Below are positions 2,508 to 59,294 of a stretch of DNA of 64,000 nt, piece after piece. Origin of the DNA: Candidatus Omnitrophota bacterium. GTDB lineage: Bacteria > Omnitrophota > Gorgyraeia > Duberdicusellales > 4484-171. The translations under genes and the position numbers were made by a program. The notes under the pieces were generated by a model. It did not search any database. It was not told the origin of the DNA and was given only the letters and a program-made list of their open reading frames with translations. The DNA lies in NCBI GenBank assembly GCA_041652815.1, contig JBAZGN010000005.1, positions 99,651 through 163,650 on the forward strand, read 5' to 3'. Every line of letters starts with the position of its first letter. Position 1 is the first letter of the stretch.

Positions 2508-3086
2508 ATGAAAGTTGCAACTCTTAGTCAAAGAAATTACCTTGCCCTGCGTATTTGTGCTATATTTTCTTTTAGCATTTTAATGGTGATTTCTGCTTAT
2601 GTGCGCATACCACTTTTTTTTACGCCTGTCCCGTTTACTTTGCAAACCTTTGTCTTCTATCTTAGTATTGTTTTTTTAAAAAGGCAGGCAGTGTTTTCGC
2701 AGGCAATTTATTTATTTTTAGGTTTAATCGGCCTCCCTGTTTTTACAAATGCCGGAAGCGGCTTACTTTATTTTCTTGGGCCCACCGGGGGCTATCTCGT
2801 TGGTTTTGTGGTAGCGTCATTGATTTTTCCTTTCTTTTCCCCGAAGCTTGATAGCTTTTTTAAAAACTTTTGCTATTTCTCTTCTGTTGCTTTTTGCGTG
2901 TATTTCTTTGGAATAGCCTGGCTTATGTTTATACATAAATTTTCCTTAACTAACGCTCTTATTGCGGGAGCAATGCCGTTTGCCTTAGGTGAAGTATTTA
3001 AAATTGGTTCGGCTTCTTTAATCCGCTTAAGATTGAAATCAGGTTTATTCTCCGGTAAGAACGGCTATCGCAATTACCAGATATAG
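2508..3086 (+). CDS. bioY: BioY-family biotin transporter substrate-specific component.
   Basis: PFTLQTF and GPTGGYLVGF motifs typical of BioY; multi-TM; strong RBS. Confidence 0.7.
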   Translation: MKVATLSQRNYLALRICAIFSFSILMVISAYVRIPLFFTPVPFTLQTFVFYLSIVFLKRQAVFSQAIYLFLGLIGLPVFTNAGSGLLYFLGPTGGYLVGFVVASLIFPFFSPKLDSFFKNFCYFSSVAFCVYFFGIAWLMFIHKFSLTNALIAGAMPFALGEVFKIGSASLIRLRLKSGLFSGKNGYRNYQI

Positions 3087-3175
3087 TCTTTAGTTTCGCA
3101 AATGTTAAAGCAAATATTTATATTGACCTGGCAGCCGTTATGTTATGGTAATTATAGACAGTAGGTTTAATTTCC

Positions 3176-3904: not shown

Positions 3905-6900
3905 ATGGACAAGGACTATATGCTTCGCGATGATGGAAGTTTTATTATAAAGAATTATAACAGCAAACATCCATTTTCAAATTTTCTTCCCGGCGTAGCC
4001 GGTGCCTGGGGAGTACCGATGTGGGTTTTTTACGTAAACCGGGCACAGGGAGTTATAAGTTTCGGAGTCAAAGATAAAGATCACGCTATAACCGAATTTT
4101 TCCCGGCGAATAATGCTTATTGTTTTGCGCCGCTTGTAGGCTTTCGTACATTCCTCAAGATAAACGATAAAATTAATTATGAGCCATTTCGTGTAATTTC
4201 AGATTATGAACGTAACGAGGAGATGGTTATAAAAAGCTCATCTTTCAGCATACGCAAAAATAATCCGGAACTTGGCCTTAATTTGCGTATTAAATATTTT
4301 ACGCTTCCAAATAGCGCTGCGGGGGCACTGGTACGTGTTTTATCCGTTAAAAATATTTCCGACAAGGAAATAAAGCTTGAGGTTTTAGACGGGTTACCCA
4401 AAATAATACCCTTTGGATTAAACAACGTGTTGCTCAAAGATTTAGCAAGGACTATGGAAGCATGGATGCGCGCTGAAGTTCATAATAACCTGGCATTCTT
4501 CCGTATGATTGTTGACCCCAAAGATTCAAGCCAGACAAAATATATTGATGGCGCTAATTTCGAATACGCTTTTTATGAAGAAAACGGTAAAAAGGTATCA
4601 CCTTATATAATAGTAGACCCTACTGCAATTTTTGCGCAGGATACTTCCTATTCTGTTCCAGTTAATTTTTATGCAAGCAGTTTCAAAACTCCACTTACAC
4701 AAATTATGGCAGGGAAAACCCCGTGCGCTTTTAACCATTTTACATGGAGTATTCTACCGGGAGAGGTTAAAATATTTTACAGTATGTTTGGTTCTTCTTT
4801 TAAATCGCAGCTTATCAAAGATTTTGTTTCGGGAATAGATGCTAACTTTTTAAAAGAAAAAGAAAAAGAAAATAAAAGTATTATTGAAAATATTAAAGAT
4901 AATTGTTTTTCTGTATGTTCTTCAGACAGGCTGAAAGAGTATGTGAAATGTACTTATCTGGATAATGTTTTGCGCGGCGGTTACCCTTATAAATTTACGG
5001 ATAAAAACAGTTACTATATTTTTTCCCGCAAGCATGGTGACCTGGAAAGAGATTATAATAAGTTTAAGTTACTACCTTCCTATTTTAGTGAGGGCGAGGC
5101 AAATTATCGTGATATAAACCAGAACCGCAGGGTAGATTTATTCTTCAATCCGTCCCTTGGAAAATCAAATATAGTGTATTTCCTAAACCTCATAAAGATT
5201 GACGGATATAATCCGCTGGTAGTAAAAGGCGAAAGGCTGTTTTTTAACCAGGCAGCAGCGCGTAATCTATTAAAACAATTCGGTATAGCTGATAAAAAAA
5301 TAATTTCTCTGATGGTTTCAGGCTTTCATCTTGGTGATTTCTTTAAAATCCTTAAAGAAGAAGGTATTGTTGTCAAGGCGCGAGAAAAATTAGCCGCGGA
5401 ATTAGTTACGAAAGCGCAAAGAGAGCCTCAGGCAACTCATGGCGAAGGGTACTGGATAGATCATTGGCGCTATAACCTTGATTTAATCGAAAACTTCCTT
5501 TATTTTTATCCCGATAAATTAGATGACCTGTTTTTAACCAAGGAATATTATTTTTGGGATGATGAGTGGCGCGTTAAGGAACGCAGCCATCGTTTCCATT
5601 TAAAAGATGGTAAGGTTTACCAGTGGCACTCTGTTGAAGAAGTGGGAGAGAAAAAAGATGTTATAGCTTCGCGCGCAAAATTCGCTAATTTTCTGCGTGA
5701 TAAAAAAGGAAATATTTATACTACAAGCCTTATAGAAAAACTTTTAACTCTTATTCTCAATAAAGCTGCGACTTTAGATCCTGATGGTGTAGGCGTTGAA
5801 ATGGAGGCGGATAAACCAGGCTGGTGCGATTCTCTAAATGGCCTTCCTGCTCTTTTTGGCTCTTCAATATGCGAAACTTTTGAATTAAAGCGCGCCTGCC
5901 TTTTGCTGAGTGAAGCAGCATCAGCTTTAAACAAAAAAGGTACAGCTAATTTTAATTTGGCAGAGGAAGTGTATGAATTTTTAGAAGGGCTTGAAGGGCT
6001 GACTAAGAAATACTCTAACCTGCCGGCAAAACAGCGTGATATGTTCTGGTGGGAAAAATCCAATTCCCTGAAGGAAAGTTTCCGGAAAACAACTTTTGCG
6101 CAGATTAAAGGCAAACAGATAAGCATTCCCGGCCTGCGGCTAGAAAAATTCTTAAATTCGCTGGTTAATAAATTGGATAACGGTATCGAAAAAGCTCTGG
6201 ACAGGGATACAGGAATTTATTCTACGTATTTTAAGTATAGCGTAGAAAAATTTCATGCCAAAGGAAAAATAATTAAGCCGCTTAAGTTTAAAAAAGAGCC
6301 TCTCGCGCATTTCTTGGAAGGTTCGGTTCATGCTCTACGCACGCAAAAAGAAAGTTCTATTTATAGTGCGTTAAAGAAAACAGTTATTTTCGATAAAGTA
6401 TTACGGATGTACCGTCTCAACGCGTCTTTAGAAAAAGAACCTCTTGAAATTGGAAGAAGCAGGATTTTTACACCGGGCTGGCTTGAGAATGAATCCATCT
6501 GGCTGCATATGGAATACAAATACCTTTTGGAAGTGCTTAAAAAAGGTTTGTATGAAGAATTCTACGAAGATTTTCATAATTGCGCGGTATGTTTCTTCGA
6601 CGCGCAAAAATACGGAAGAAATATCCTGGAAAACTCTTCTTTTATTGTAAGCAGCGCTAATTGCGATAAAAATTTATGGAACAAAGGTTTTGTCGCGCGC
6701 TTAAGCGGTGCAACTGTTGAGCTCCTGAATATGTGGATTGTAATGTGCCTGGGTAAGTCGCCATTTAATATTAACGGTAATGGCGAACTAACTCTTAAAT
6801 TTTCCCCTATTCTCAAGTCAGAGCTTTTTACCAAGCAGGAGCAGAAAATCGAATTTAGAGGCAAAAGCGAGATTATTGAAAAAGATTGTTTCGCTTTCAA

Positions 6901-9953: not shown

Positions 9954-10108
9954 TTATAGGTAAATATGGGTGAGGGTAGAAAAACTTTCGGTCCAACAAA
10001 TAAAAAATATTGTGACCTTCACAAGAAATCGTCCCGCTGCAGAAAAGGAAAAAAGAAATAGCCGCTTTCAATTTCATAGTTTTTTAAATAAATCTATCCT
10101 TATTGTTC

Positions 10109-10182
10109 GCCCCGGTGGCTCAATTGGATAGAGCATCTGGCTTCGGACCAGAGGGTTGCAAGTTCAATTCTTGCTCGGGGCG
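10109..10182 (+). tRNA. tRNA-Arg (anticodon TCG).
   Basis: Cloverleaf folded by hand: 7-bp acceptor GCCCCGG/TCGGGGC, anticodon loop CTTCGGA, T-loop TTCAATT. Confidence 0.8.
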
Positions 10183-10218
10183 TTTGAGTTGTTTGGTAGG
10201 TTTACTTGATATTTTATC

Positions 10219-10307
10219 GGAGAGGTGCCGGAGCGGTTTAACGGGTACGCCTGGAGAGCGTAAGTCTGTCGAAAGACGGACCGAGAGTTCAAATCTCTCC
10301 CTCTCCG
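10219..10307 (+). tRNA. tRNA-Ser (anticodon GGA), long variable arm.
   Basis: Acceptor GGAGAGG/CCTCTCC, anticodon loop CTGGAGA, long variable arm, T-loop TTCAAAT. Confidence 0.8.
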
Positions 10308-10580
10308 TTGTCCTACCTATCGCGAGAAAACATCCAACCAGAAATGGGGATGTTTTCTCGCAACATATAGGAAAAGGACAACGGATTCCGGCGAAGCACC
10401 GCCTGAGCCGGAATATCGTTAATAATATTTCGTAAGCGTAAACCATCAAACCGAAGGGGATGGTTTTCCACAACATCTAGGAAAAGGACAACGGATTCCG
10501 GCGAGCCGACCGAGGACGTAATGTCCGAGGGAGTGCCAAGGCCTCCGGATGAGGCTCCGTCCGAGCCAGAATATAACCCT
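10308..10580 (+). repeat. tRNA-Ser-linked structured element, copy 1, with a degenerate internal tandem duplication.
   Basis: 57 nt identical to 14626-14682, including a 15-bp perfect hairpin CGCGAGAAAACATCC..GGATGTTTTCTCGCA. AGGACAACGG pairs back onto the tRNA 3' trailer CCGTTGTCCT. A second conserved ~100 nt domain (GGATTCCGGCGAG...GCCGGAAT) follows. Confidence 0.6.
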
Positions 10581-14455: not shown

Positions 14456-14537
14456 AATATCCGCATGTGGCGGTTTTACCCACCACCAAAAAAGATATTT
14501 AAGAGGACACGCCTCGGGCGGAAAAACCGTTTGTTTT

Positions 14538-14625
14538 GGAGAGGTGGCTGAGCGGTTGAAAGCGCCGGTCTTGAAAACCGGTGTGGGCCTTGTGTCCACC
14601 GTGAGTTCAAATCTCACCCTCTCCG
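14538..14625 (+). tRNA. tRNA-Ser (anticodon TGA), long variable arm.
   Basis: Acceptor GGAGAGG/CCTCTCC, anticodon loop CTTGAAA, T-loop TTCAAAT. Confidence 0.8.
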
Positions 14626-14832
14626 TTGTCCTACCTATCGCGAGAAAACATCCAACCAGAAATGGGGATGTTTTCTCGCAACCTGAGCTCATTAATAAAA
14701 ATATTCAGCGAGGCTTCGCGAAGCGAAGAGGAGGAAAAGGACAACGGATTCCGGCGAGGTAACCGAGGACGTAATGTCCGAGGGAGTGCCAAGGCCTCCG
14801 GACGAGGCTCCGCCCAAGCCGGAATGTAACCC
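14626..14832 (+). repeat. tRNA-Ser-linked structured element, copy 2.
   Basis: Same 57-nt hairpin module and ~100-nt second domain as 10308-10580. Confidence 0.6.
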
Positions 14833-14977
14833 CCGGCTTTATACGCTAAACAATTCAAGCAGTTTTTCTCCGGCACTAGGCATTCCTTTAATCCTTGACT
14901 TTGTCATTCAATTGTGCTATTTTAAATCTATTATTTTACCGGAATTTTTTCGGTTATTTTCTCAAGAGGAGGTAAAT

Positions 14978-15634
14978 ATGAGAAAAAAGTTGTTGTTGTT
15001 TATTCTATTGTTTTGTTTTATTTTTGTTAATGGTTGTGCGGTTATATTTCAGACCGGCAGGCGGTCGGATGCAGAACGTATAAAGACGCTTGAAAAAGAA
15101 CTTGAAGAATTAAGGCATACAAAAGGCCTTCTTGAGCAGACTTTAGAGAAGGAGATAAAAGATAAACAGGTCCGGTTGAGTATGGAGGAAAAAGGGCTTG
15201 TAATTACTTTTGTTTCAGAAGTTCTTTTTGATTCGGGTAAGGCCACCTTAAAGCCTGAAAGTTTTTCAAGCTTGGATAAGGTAGCTAAGATACTTGTAGA
15301 TAATGTCCCGGAAAATAATATAGGTATAGAAGGCTATACCGATAATGAGCCCATAAAGCACTCAAAATGGAAATCAAACTGGGAATTATCGGCTCATCGT
15401 GCATTAAGCGTGCTTGAATATCTGGAAAAAGAAGGTGTTAACTCAGAGAGGCTTTCTGCAAGTGGTTTTGGAGAGTATAAGCCGATCTCATCAAATGATA
15501 CTGCGCAAGGTAGGCAGTTGAATAGAAGAGTAGAAATTGTAATATTACCTAAAACCGTAAAAAAAATGGAAAAGCGAGTTTCGGAGGGTAGCGTCAGTGA
15601 GCCTTCTAGCGAAGGAGAGGAGGAATTGAAATGA
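14978..15634 (+). CDS. OmpA-family lipoprotein (Pal/MotB-like peptidoglycan-binding).
   Basis: Lipobox-like VNGC after a signal peptide; OmpA_C block GYTDNEP...NWELSAHRA...NRRVEI; GAGGAGG RBS. The upstream part of the 14774 ORF is read-through of the repeat. Confidence 0.75.
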   Translation: MRKKLLLFILLFCFIFVNGCAVIFQTGRRSDAERIKTLEKELEELRHTKGLLEQTLEKEIKDKQVRLSMEEKGLVITFVSEVLFDSGKATLKPESFSSLDKVAKILVDNVPENNIGIEGYTDNEPIKHSKWKSNWELSAHRALSVLEYLEKEGVNSERLSASGFGEYKPISSNDTAQGRQLNRRVEIVILPKTVKKMEKRVSEGSVSEPSSEGEEELK

Positions 15635-57539: not shown

Positions 57540-59294
57540 ATGAAAAACCAAGAAGTATCCCGTATTTTCAGGGATATTGCTAAAATACTGGAATTAAAGG
57601 GAGAAAATATTTTTAGAATCCGTGCCTATGAGCGCGCAGCCCAGGCAGTAGATAATTTACAGGAAAACCTTGAAGGGGTAATTAAAAAAGAAGAACTTAC
57701 TTCAATACCCGGTATCGGCGCAGATTTATCCGTAAAAATTAAAGAAATTGCCGCAACTGGCCGTCTTAAGTATTATGAAGAGCTTAAGAAAAAAACTCCG
57801 CAGGGCCTTATCGCAATGATGGAAATACCCGGGCTTGGCCCAAAAACAGTTAAAAAGCTATATGAGCAATTAAAGATAAACACGGTAGAAAAATTAGAAA
57901 AGGCTGCCAAGAGCGGCAAACTGTTAAAACTCGAAGGTATAAGGGAAAAAACCGAAGATAATATTTTAAGGGGCATTAACCTTGTAAGGAAAGGCGGGGA
58001 AAGGCAGACGCTTAATTCTGGCTTGCTACTTTCGAAAAGTTTTGTTGATAAGTTAAAAAGCCTTAAAGCCATAGATGATATCGAGGTGGCAGGTTCGGTA
58101 AGAAGGAAAAAAGATACCATAAAAGATATAGACATCCTTGTTACTTCAAAAAAACCCAAGGAAGTAATGGATAAATTTATACATCTTGATTTGGTCAAAG
58201 AAGTTTTGGCGCACGGAGAAACAAAATCTTCGGTAATCGCGAAGGAAAATAATATGCAGGTAGACTTGCGTGTCCTTAAACACGAAAGTTTCGGCTCGGC
58301 GCTTTTATATTTTACCGGCTCCAAAGAATTTAATATCCGGCTTCGCCAGCTTGCTATAAAAATGGGATACAAAATAAACGAATACGGGGTATTTCCTGCC
58401 ACCTCAATGAAAAATACAGGCGGGCCCGCCTCTGGCGGACAGAAAGATAAAAAACTTGCCGGAAAAACCGAAGAAGAAATTTTTTCACTATTAAAAATGG
58501 CGTATATCCCTCCTGAGCTAAGAGAAGACAGGGGAGAAATCGACGCTGCGCTGGAAAACAAATTACCCAAGCTCATAGAATTGAACGATATTAAAGGGGA
58601 TTTCCATATCCATTCAAGATACAGCGATGGCTTAGCCTCGATTGCGGATATCGCGAAAAAACTGGAAGAGTTTGACTATGAATATGCTGCGATATGCGAC
58701 CACTCGCAGAGCTTAAAAATTGCCGGAGGGCTTTCAGAGAAAGAAGTTTATAAGAAACTTAAAGAACTTAAAAAAGTAAACCAAAAAAGTAAAATAAAAC
58801 TTTTTGCCGGGACAGAAGTTGATATAGCCTCGGACGGCACGCTTGATTATTCAAATAACTTGCTTAAAGAATTTGACGTGGTCGTTGCGGCGATACACTC
58901 TGGGTTCAAACAAACAAAAGCACAGCTTACAAAACGGATTGTTAATGCCTGCAAAAATAAATATACAAATATAATCGCTCATCCAACAGGCAAATTATGG
59001 GGCGCGCGGGAAGCCTATGATATTGATATTGATGAAATTTGCCGTGCGGCAGCCGATAACCAGGTAGCCCTTGAGATAAATTGCTATCCGCAAAGATTAG
59101 ACTTAAACGATATTAATGTGATGAGAGCTAAAAAACACGGTGTTAAGCTTACATTAGGCACAGACAGCCATCAGCTTAATCAATTGTGGTCTATGGAATT
59201 AGGGGTAGCTGTTGCCAGGCGCGGCTGGCTGGAGAAGGGCGATATTATAAATTGTCTTTCCTTAAATGGGGTAATTAAATGGTTAAAAAAATGA
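57540..59294 (+). CDS. polX: Family X DNA polymerase with a C-terminal PHP domain.
   Basis: Pol-beta-like N-terminus (IFRDIAKILELKGENIFRIRAYERAA, HhH GIG motifs), catalytic Asp region, PHP HxH...H motifs. Confidence 0.85.
   Translation: MKNQEVSRIFRDIAKILELKGENIFRIRAYERAAQAVDNLQENLEGVIKKEELTSIPGIGADLSVKIKEIAATGRLKYYEELKKKTPQGLIAMMEIPGLGPKTVKKLYEQLKINTVEKLEKAAKSGKLLKLEGIREKTEDNILRGINLVRKGGERQTLNSGLLLSKSFVDKLKSLKAIDDIEVAGSVRRKKDTIKDIDILVTSKKPKEVMDKFIHLDLVKEVLAHGETKSSVIAKENNMQVDLRVLKHESFGSALLYFTGSKEFNIRLRQLAIKMGYKINEYGVFPATSMKNTGGPASGGQKDKKLAGKTEEEIFSLLKMAYIPPELREDRGEIDAALENKLPKLIELNDIKGDFHIHSRYSDGLASIADIAKKLEEFDYEYAAICDHSQSLKIAGGLSEKEVYKKLKELKKVNQKSKIKLFAGTEVDIASDGTLDYSNNLLKEFDVVVAAIHSGFKQTKAQLTKRIVNACKNKYTNIIAHPTGKLWGAREAYDIDIDEICRAAADNQVALEINCYPQRLDLNDINVMRAKKHGVKLTLGTDSHQLNQLWSMELGVAVARRGWLEKGDIINCLSLNGVIKWLKK

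Follow-up and report, generated by a model that had tools for sequence, protein, structure and literature searches.

Repeats that lie next to tRNA genes have been known in E. coli since 1978, when the first tRNA-linked repeats (TLRs) were reported (Egan & Landy 1978; Rudd 1999), and 22 of them are recognised at ten tRNA and rRNA loci, with 1–5 at each (PMC8144298). Their hallmark is that the last 18–19 bp of the repeat match the 3′ terminus of the preceding tRNA exactly; three members linked to rRNA arise by processing of the primary transcript, and the tRNA-linked members have no known function (PMC8144298). Here we describe a repeat of comparable placement in a 64 kb stretch (the window) of the Candidatus Omnitrophota contig JBAZGN010000005.1 (GCA_041652815.1), in which one copy follows tRNA-Ser(GGA) at 10.3 kb (copy 1) and another follows tRNA-Ser(TGA) (copy 2); coordinates are window positions. 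Like the TLRs, this element lies directly 3′ of a tRNA gene and on the same strand, and it has several tandem units per locus and several loci per genome. With moderate confidence, we interpret it as a structured repeat of the tRNA-Ser 3′ trailer that is lineage-restricted, modular, and homogenised by gene conversion.

The window contains three tRNA genes, all on the + strand (identified with ARAGORN and Rfam; Table 1), and CCA is encoded in none of them. The original prediction, made from the sequence of the region, proposed that two tRNA-Ser trailers share one element, and this is borne out by the alignment. An 85 nt block (10280–10364 and 14598–14682) is common to both trailers with 98% identity, and its only two differences are a compensating pair within the tRNA T stem. 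The 57 nt directly 3′ of the two tRNA-Ser genes show no difference between the copies, in agreement with the predicted 57 nt hairpin module. A second block of 101 nt (10479–10579 and 14732–14832) is 92% identical, and the alignment gives 8 differences (10506–10508, 10550, 10560, 10563, 10568 and 10573 in copy 1 numbering) where 4–6 substitutions had been counted. Core 25-mers and 40-mers of these blocks occur 2–3 times, versus an expectation of zero from shuffles; the tRNA-Ser-linked repeat is real and non-random. Of the interval 14538–14832 initially assigned to copy 2, the first 89 nt (14538–14626) are tRNA and the element proper is 14626–14832. Perfect identity begins at the acceptor 3′ strand, and the trailer has therefore been exchanged or copied independently of the tRNA body, as was proposed; the bodies of the two isoacceptors differ strongly in their 5′ two-thirds.

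The element is composed of three modules, A, B and C, with A+B as the basic unit. Module A is a hairpin of ~75 nt whose 5′ arm opens at the last three bases of the tRNA (CCG, followed by TTGTCCT). The outer arm CCGTTGTCCT, which includes the tRNA CCG, pairs with AGGACAACGG, which runs straight into B, and the core is a perfect 14 bp stem (GCGAGAAAACATCC / GGATGTTTTCTCGC) with the tip CCA-GAAA-UGG. Module B (~45 nt) is an 8 bp hairpin, ATTCCGGC / GCCGGAAT, with the loop GARGCNCCNNCNGA, extended on the outside by CAACG / CGTTG. In module C, a hairpin of type B carries a ~46 nt insert in its loop, and the insert holds a 40-mer that is identical in both window copies. The order is A, B, A′ (a degenerate A core) and C in copy 1, and A, a ~50 nt piece with the palindrome GCTTCGCGAAGC, and C in copy 2. 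The copies are not collinear, with B and A′ (~110 nt) extra in copy 1 and the different 50 nt piece (14683–14732) in copy 2.

Relatives were sought with a 20-mer scan of GTDB species genomes and a degenerate 21-mer scan of metagenome contigs, and ~30 further loci were fetched via orthologues of the OmpA-family protein encoded downstream of copy 2 and homologues of the 99-aa protein encoded upstream of copy 1. Covariance models were built for module B (R1) and for A+B (R2), and the window was searched with filters off. The 20-mer scan yielded one true orthologous locus (L004) and one chance match in an alphaproteobacterial coding sequence (CDS; L005). The 21-mer scan yielded 40 loci, of which about five are true and ~34 are chance matches in high-GC contigs; L024 and L028, whose match is confined to the 5′ arm of B, are left unclassified. 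L004 is a Candidatus Omnitrophota metagenome-assembled genome with a response regulator-tRNA-Ser(TGA)-OmpA locus carrying modules A, B, B, A′ and C, and the 122 kb contig L025 contains orthologues of both loci (GGA: A, four B-type modules, C; TGA: A, B, B, C). L017 has tRNA-Ser(GCT), A, B and B, with dnaX ~30 nt after the last B; in L041 a much diverged A+B directly follows tRNA-Ser(GGA), and there is a lone B ~1.2 kb from the tRNA cluster; L013 has A+B without a detectable tRNA. The number of B modules varies from 0 to 4 per locus and differs between strains. At L004, L025, L017 and L041, as at both tRNA-Ser genes of the window, the base that follows the discriminator is the first of the element, and all tRNA-linked copies are in tRNA-Ser trailers.

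The scores of the models are 71.7 bits for copy 1 module B (R1) and 143.9 bits for 10301–10418 (R2), and neither model finds a further copy in the 64 kb window besides the two trailers, or any copy in ~40 related loci lacking the element. The suggested search for copies after other tRNAs gave none in the window; A+B follows tRNA-Ser(GCT) in the related contig L017. Nothing related is present in the more distant genomes L070 and L079, and the loci of remoter homologues of the 99-aa protein encoded ahead of tRNA-Arg/Ser(GGA) contain no A, B or C. Rfam 15 reports only tRNA matches and nothing in the element even at E ≤ 10. BLAST against phage and plasmid collections matched the tRNA part only, or nothing, and scans of viral contigs gave nothing, or chance matches inside CDSs. 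We found nothing relevant in the literature on the same element in Omnitrophota.

Both window regions fold far better than shuffles (z = −4.6 for the minimum free energy (MFE) fold of copy 2, and −5.6), and the opposite strand folds equally well, as palindromes would. The substitutions between the two window copies had been thought to preserve pairing, but when the copies are aligned and scored none of the 8 differences amounts to a compensatory change on both sides of a pair. The change cited as G-U to G-C in the closing arm (GCCAGAAT versus GCCGGAAT; A at 10568, G at 14821) faces a C of the 5′ arm ATTCCGGC, so that, read along the tRNA strand, copy 1 has a C·A mismatch where copy 2 has C-G, and only the opposite strand gives G·U versus G-C. 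Nor is the closing stem of the second domain preserved: the closing 3′ arm of C is lost in L004 and at the TGA locus of L025, and RNAalifold on five C modules finds no covarying pair. Compensatory change is instead seen in A and B, and only when other genomes are compared. RNAalifold on seven A+B units from five lineages gives 37 pairs, 13 of them with compensatory double changes, which occur in B as well as in both the outer and the core stem (e.g. TTGTCCT/AGGACAA, TTGTCTT/AAGACAA, TTGTTTCT/AGAAACAA and TTTTTCTT/AAGAAAAA). For B alone (nine units) 86% of cells are paired, versus 25–44% when the partner columns are slid by 1–3, and three pairs have double changes (ATTCCGAC/GTCGGAAT, ACTCTGGC/GCCAGAGT). 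The unpaired stretches GCAACAT.TAG.AAAA, ACGGATTC and GGCGARGC are constant across lineages while the stems change. The A and B hairpins are maintained by compensatory changes across five lineages, and plain duplicated filler, the outcome that was to count against the prediction, is ruled out for A and B only, with the C insert excepted.

The two window copies also have an informative relationship to those in L025. Module A has no differences between the window paralogues versus 3–4 to the L025 orthologues, and module C has 8 versus 14–17. Because the paralogous trailers are closer than the orthologous ones while the tRNA bodies stay very different, the alignments indicate exchange between the two loci after the lineages split, by gene conversion or re-copying. 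Gene conversion that starts in the 3′ end common to the tRNA-Ser loci would keep the copies alike, and unequal recombination between the repeated ACAACGGATTCCGGCGA cores would expand and contract the module arrays; module number is variable between close strains, as such recombination would give. The ~50 nt piece of copy 2 is orthologous to sequence after A′ in L004, and copy 2 thus looks like the product of recombination or deletion between A and A′ with loss of the B modules.

Table 1. Positions of the tRNA genes, repeat modules and downstream features in the window
Feature	Position	Strand	Basis and details
tRNA-Arg(TCG)	10108–10183	+	ARAGORN, Rfam; precedes tRNA-Ser(GGA)
tRNA-Ser(GGA)	10218–10308	+	ARAGORN, Rfam; upstream of copy 1
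Copy 1 module A	10305–10384	+	Outer arms 10305–10314 / 10375–10384; core 10322–10335 / 10348–10361
Copy 1 module B	10380–10420	+	ATTCCGGC 10385–10392 / GCCGGAAT 10407–10414; loop GAAGCACCGCCTGA; outer CAACG/CGTTA
Copy 1 module A′	10436–10479	+	Direct repeat (GCGTAAACCATC...GATGGTTTTCCAC); R2 match 10426–10526
Copy 1 module C	10479–10579	+	Closing 3′ arm GCCAGAAT 10565–10572; C·A mismatch on + strand
tRNA-Ser(TGA)	14537–14626	+	ARAGORN, Rfam tRNA 63.8 bits; discriminator G = 14625
Copy 2 module A, 5′ part and core hairpin	14623–14682	+	Inverted repeat; MFE fold; identical to 10305–10364
Copy 2 module A, outer 5′ arm	14623–14632	+	CCGTTGTCCT
Copy 2 module A, core stem	14640–14653 / 14666–14679	+	
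Copy 2-specific piece	14683–14737	+	Palindrome GCTTCGCGAAGC 14713–14724; alignment, L004 sequence
Copy 2 module A, outer 3′ arm	14738–14747	+	AGGACAACGG; pairs with 14623–14632; fold, covariation of stem
Copy 2 module C	14745–14832	+	Arms ATTCCGGC 14748–14755, GCCGGAAT 14818–14825; 40-mer 14763–14802
Promoter-like site of OmpA-family gene	14895–14923	+	TTGACT-17-TATTTT; between element and gene, outside element
OmpA-family CDS	14978–15634	+	Start 146 nt past element

The flanking genes at both loci are ordinary chromosomal genes, all in the same orientation as the tRNAs. Copy 1 is preceded by the gene for the 99-aa protein, tRNA-Arg and tRNA-Ser(GGA), and followed by genes for a GGDEF/HD-GYP protein, a TadA-like deaminase, a PAS histidine kinase and a response regulator; copy 2 follows tRNA-Ser(TGA) and precedes the gene for the OmpA-family protein, uppS, cdsA and dxr. 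Copy 2 had been placed immediately upstream of the OmpA-like gene; it is indeed upstream, but the gap of 146 nt contains a promoter-like site. There is a comparable site ahead of the GGDEF gene, and both downstream-gene promoters lie 3′ of the element. Since the ompA promoter is downstream of the element, and the promoter block (TTGACTTT...TATTTTAAA) is kept in orthologous loci with and without the element, we reject a role as leader or riboswitch of the OmpA-family gene, whose orthologues at 85–90% identity occur without it. Repeats of a type III toxin-antitoxin system (ToxI-like) were likewise considered and rejected, as the downstream genes are those for the OmpA-family and GGDEF/HD-GYP proteins and dnaX. 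No terminator-like site is present within 10308–10580 or 14626–14840, and no transposase or integrase gene lies beside either window locus.

On the favoured interpretation, RNA polymerase would transcribe past the tRNA into module A, making the element part of the tRNA-Ser precursor as a 3′ external transcribed spacer (3′ETS). Because no terminator separates the tRNA from A, the element is probably transcribed at least partly with the precursor. Its likeliest role would be in cis, where very stable hairpins lacking a U tract may slow or stop read-through from the strong tRNA promoter into the co-oriented gene; the hairpin block would also set, or shield, the RNA ends that 3′ processing leaves. 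It is equally possible that the element is a by-product of recombination and persists because trailers tolerate it.

Several observations weigh against this interpretation. Transcription of the element is itself something that we infer, and the element has no canonical terminator and no U tract after any module. In L017, only ~30 nt separate the last B from the start of dnaX, too few to accommodate a dnaX promoter, so that dnaX is probably read through the element, and A+B cannot be a complete or tight terminator there. The association with tRNA genes is also not universal, as the A+B of L013 and the lone B of L041 adjoin no detectable tRNA, and a decayed tRNA was looked for next to both and not found. 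Among close relatives whose OmpA is 85–90% identical, L059 and L047 have a short plain trailer and lack the element, and L052, L054 and L055 carry unrelated repeats in its place; L048 retains only a decayed B. The element is thus dispensable, and it is narrowly distributed. Finally, the stems consist almost wholly of Watson-Crick pairs, the exceptions among ~259 cells being 2 G·U and 1 C·A. Because nearly all pairs are of this kind, action at the level of RNA and of single-stranded DNA cannot be told apart, and neither can the strand, for which the wobble pairs (2 versus 1) are too few.

The position of the element in L017 (3265–3400) deserves comment. An arrangement of tRNA-Ser, a small RNA and dnaX is common, and in Bacillus (tRNA-Ser-scr-dnaX) the small RNA is that of the signal recognition particle (SRP). 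Since L017 reads tRNA-Ser(GCT)-A-B-B-dnaX, we considered SRP RNA and 6S RNA as identities for the element, which occupies the SRP RNA position of the Bacillus arrangement; both are rejected, as there is no Rfam match to either and no domain IV motif. We also note that encoded CCA is absent from every element-bearing tRNA seen, in a comparison that takes in L070 (3839–3929). In L041 the tRNA-Ser(GGA) gene (4694–4780, minus strand) is CCA-less and carries A+B, and the tRNA-Ser TGA (5502–5591) and CGA (5141–5229) genes, also on the minus strand, encode CCA and have plain trailers. The same locus has a match to nhaA-I (a Na+ riboswitch candidate, RF03057) at 3085–3142 on the minus strand, scoring 51.3 bits, above the gathering score, ~270 nt beyond the lone B and unrelated to the element.

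The main rival explanation, which we consider possible though rather doubtful, is that the modules are DNA-level palindromes, either selfish or neutral, or arising by fold-back or template-switch errors at heavily transcribed tRNA genes, and with no RNA function. Modules would settle in tRNA trailers and in hairpin loops that are already present, with DNA-level processes keeping them palindromic. The nearly pure Watson-Crick stems and the lack of strand asymmetry are in accord with this, as is the construction of C, which is a B with a loop insert that itself has inverted ends (CCGAGG...CCTCCGG). So too are the fast turnover, with presence/absence polymorphism among close relatives, the inverted copy, which in three unrelated families of trailers takes in 2–6 nt of the tRNA gene, as fold-back copying would, and a second palindromic family (CCACC...GGCGGA) that is found in the D-loop and anticodon loop of tRNA-Ser pseudogenes of relatives and twice in the window. 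However, there are very few copies (two trailers in 64 kb, and ~5 true loci among 40 metagenome matches), neither locus has a transposase or integrase next to it, and target-site duplications are not seen. Moreover, the conserved unpaired stretches amid changed stems suggest a constraint beyond palindromy.

The second palindromic family consists of ..CCRCCACC, an A-rich stretch and AGGCGGGYCCGCCTYNGGCGGA, with the ends TCCGCC/GGCGGA. One window copy (14467–14529) is just upstream of tRNA-Ser(TGA) and is flanked by CGGTTTT/AAAACCG, and the other (58396–58441) appears inside a reading frame (..NEYGVFPATSMKNTGGPASGGQKDKKLAGKTEEEIF..IPPELRE) that we take to be PolX-like. In relatives (L047 5913–6019, L059 6203–6249 and L049 6083–6147) the family lies within the D-loop and anticodon loop of tRNA-Ser pseudogene fragments. 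The three trailer families with a helix that takes in 2–6 nt of the tRNA 3′ end are those of L052 (6207–6240), of L054 (6178–6262) and of the window (10305–10384 and 14623–14747). Among the relatives alone, three unrelated trailers form a helix of this kind, those of L052, of L054 after TGA and of L054 after tRNA-Arg, which is in line with the favoured interpretation. In L052 the unrelated trailer hairpin is CTCCGTTTTTTGC / GCAAAAAACGGAG and uses 5 nt of the tRNA, and in L054 it is TTCTTCTTCG / CGAAGAAGAA after tRNA-Ser. An inverted copy of the tRNA-end/trailer junction sits downstream in these families, which reflects either repeated copying by fold-back or a selective advantage of pairing with the acceptor 3′ strand.

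An unlikely further possibility is that the clade harbours tiny hairpin elements that insert into loops of hairpins and tRNA genes, by a transposition targeting structured single-stranded DNA and with the trailer array as a nesting ground, or that A+B is a stable, processed tRNA-Ser trailer RNA acting in trans. We note that L060 and L064 encode a 314-aa protein with a Y1_Tnp domain (IS200-like, of the type of REP-associated tyrosine transposases (RAYTs), where REP is repetitive extragenic palindrome) at position 1–18, where the gene runs off the locus. The gene is ~2.5 kb upstream of that for the 99-aa protein, in a related genome without a tRNA at the site, and its product is possibly relevant to the mobility of hairpin elements in the clade.

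We think it unlikely that the element is a trans-acting small RNA (sRNA) cut from the 3′ETS of tRNA-Ser. Such an RNA would start after cleavage with hairpin A protecting its 5′ end, and would accumulate and bind a protein or other RNAs, by analogy with E. coli 3′ETS-leuZ and RrA/B/F. Hairpin A is at trailer position +1 in every tRNA-linked copy, covariation occurs alongside conserved single-stranded motifs, the L013 copy stands alone without a tRNA, and there are precedents (PMC8144298). Set against these are the dispensability of the element in close relatives and its unstable module number, and no target or partner protein can be proposed.

It is quite improbable that the element is a relic or attachment site of an integrative element targeting tRNA-Ser, or the ends of a miniature transposon. 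Module A does have inverted termini (TTGTCCT / AGGACAA), and the tRNA-Ser(TGA) site is a rearrangement hot spot in L047, L049 and L059, but the element has no flanking direct repeat of the tRNA 3′ end and no integrase or transposase in its vicinity, the phage, plasmid and viral collections contain no relatives, and covariation of the hairpins would not be expected for protein-binding att sites. An att-bounded element integrated in the tRNA gene is rejected, as there is no far-end direct repeat of the tRNA 3′ end and no integrase. An integron attC site, for which we looked for R″(RYYYAAC)...R′(GTTRRRY) cores, an imperfect hairpin, one site per cassette and intI, is also rejected: ACAAC...GTTG is present in 6 of 9 B copies (5 as CGTTG) and misfits at the R/Y positions, the units are 66 nt apart with no cassette open reading frame (ORF), the terminal B copies have no 3′ core, and there is no integrase nearby.

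The hot spot itself lies between the response regulator gene and ompA (L047 5888–6381, L049 5823–6200, L059 6181–6376), and in L055 and L056 there is rearrangement upstream of tRNA-Ser(TGA) as well. It contains 5′ fragments of an older tRNA-Ser with a different, intact tRNA-Ser(TGA) inserted beside or inside them, and in L047 an 80-aa GIY-YIG ORF (Pfam E = 8e-16) is directly upstream of the replacement tRNA. This suggests a mobile cassette that targets tRNA genes at this site in the relatives.

The least probable explanation, that module C encodes a short proline-rich peptide (MSEGVPRPPDEAP...), is one that we regard as highly improbable: an ATG lies in the loop of a GGAC-GUAAU-GUCC hairpin with GAGGA 4 nt upstream, the frame is open for ~20 codons in all five copies, and of the 5 sites that vary within the first 39 nt, 4 are third codon positions, but over 60 nt the variable sites are spread 8/5/10 across the three positions, the third-position excess (p ~0.045 for one frame) is lost on correction for six frames, past codon ~20 the copies have nothing in common in frame, length (31 to >89 aa) or sequence, there is no Pfam match, and the lineages with only A+B have no such ORF. 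The frame opens at 10521–10580 and 14774–14833 in the window and in the L004 and L025 copies, and at the TGA locus it happens to run in frame into the OmpA-family gene, creating a spurious 286-aa ORF (14774–15634).

The element represents a second, unrelated family of tRNA-linked repeats, and in a phylum that has barely been studied. Should the structure act on the precursor RNA, it would offer a simple model of the separation of strong tRNA promoters from downstream genes in bacteria without canonical terminators, or alternatively of the stabilisation of trailer RNA; if it acts at the DNA level, the ends of tRNA genes would be hot spots of palindrome formation and gene conversion. In either case, the dispensability and narrow distribution of the element limit its general importance.

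Comparison with known systems shows resemblances to several of them. As in the mosaics of REP and bacterial interspersed mosaic elements (BIMEs), and as in miniature inverted-repeat transposable elements (MITEs), there are short imperfect palindromes, variable mosaics, nesting and strain variation, but REP elements and MITEs have tens to hundreds of dispersed copies, whereas this element is in two trailers in 64 kb and at a handful of loci across a very large metagenome collection, with no linked RAYT or transposase and no target-site duplication seen. The E. coli RNAs 3′ETS-leuZ and RrA/RrB/RrF are also trailers of stable RNAs with nearly identical copies at several operons; in contrast to the Omnitrophota element, their expression, processing and partners (Hfq, CsrA and sRNAs) have been shown, and there is no similarity to them in sequence or in Rfam. 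Intrinsic (Rho-independent) terminators likewise are stable G+C-containing hairpins that directly follow a strongly transcribed gene and precede one in the same orientation that has its own promoter, but here no U tract follows the modules and dnaX of L017 seems to need read-through.

TLR-type units are present in some relatives. L055 (6025–6389) has two 172 nt tandem units with three copies of the tRNA end (AAATCTCACCCTCTCCG) spaced 172 nt apart, and in both L055 and L056 each unit ends with the last 17 nt of tRNA-Ser(TGA). In L054 (550–830) 159 nt tandem units follow tRNA-Arg and end in a copy of its 3′ end. The 172 nt unit is close in size to the E. coli tyrT repeat, which is 178 bp. For the Omnitrophota element, the likeness to the E. 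coli TLRs in position and tandem organisation may extend to co-transcription with a stable RNA, as its placement implies. Unlike in the TLRs, the direct copy of the tRNA 3′ end is absent: the 19-mer of the tRNA end, TCAAATCTCACCCTCTCCG (with ≤3 mismatches), occurs only inside the two tRNAs, and only CGTTG recurs at the unit junctions. Instead, the tRNA end is copied in inverted orientation and is taken into the first hairpin, and the units are hairpins with compensatory pairing. The TLRs of E. coli are the closest described class, and the Omnitrophota element is a variant of that kind and not a member.

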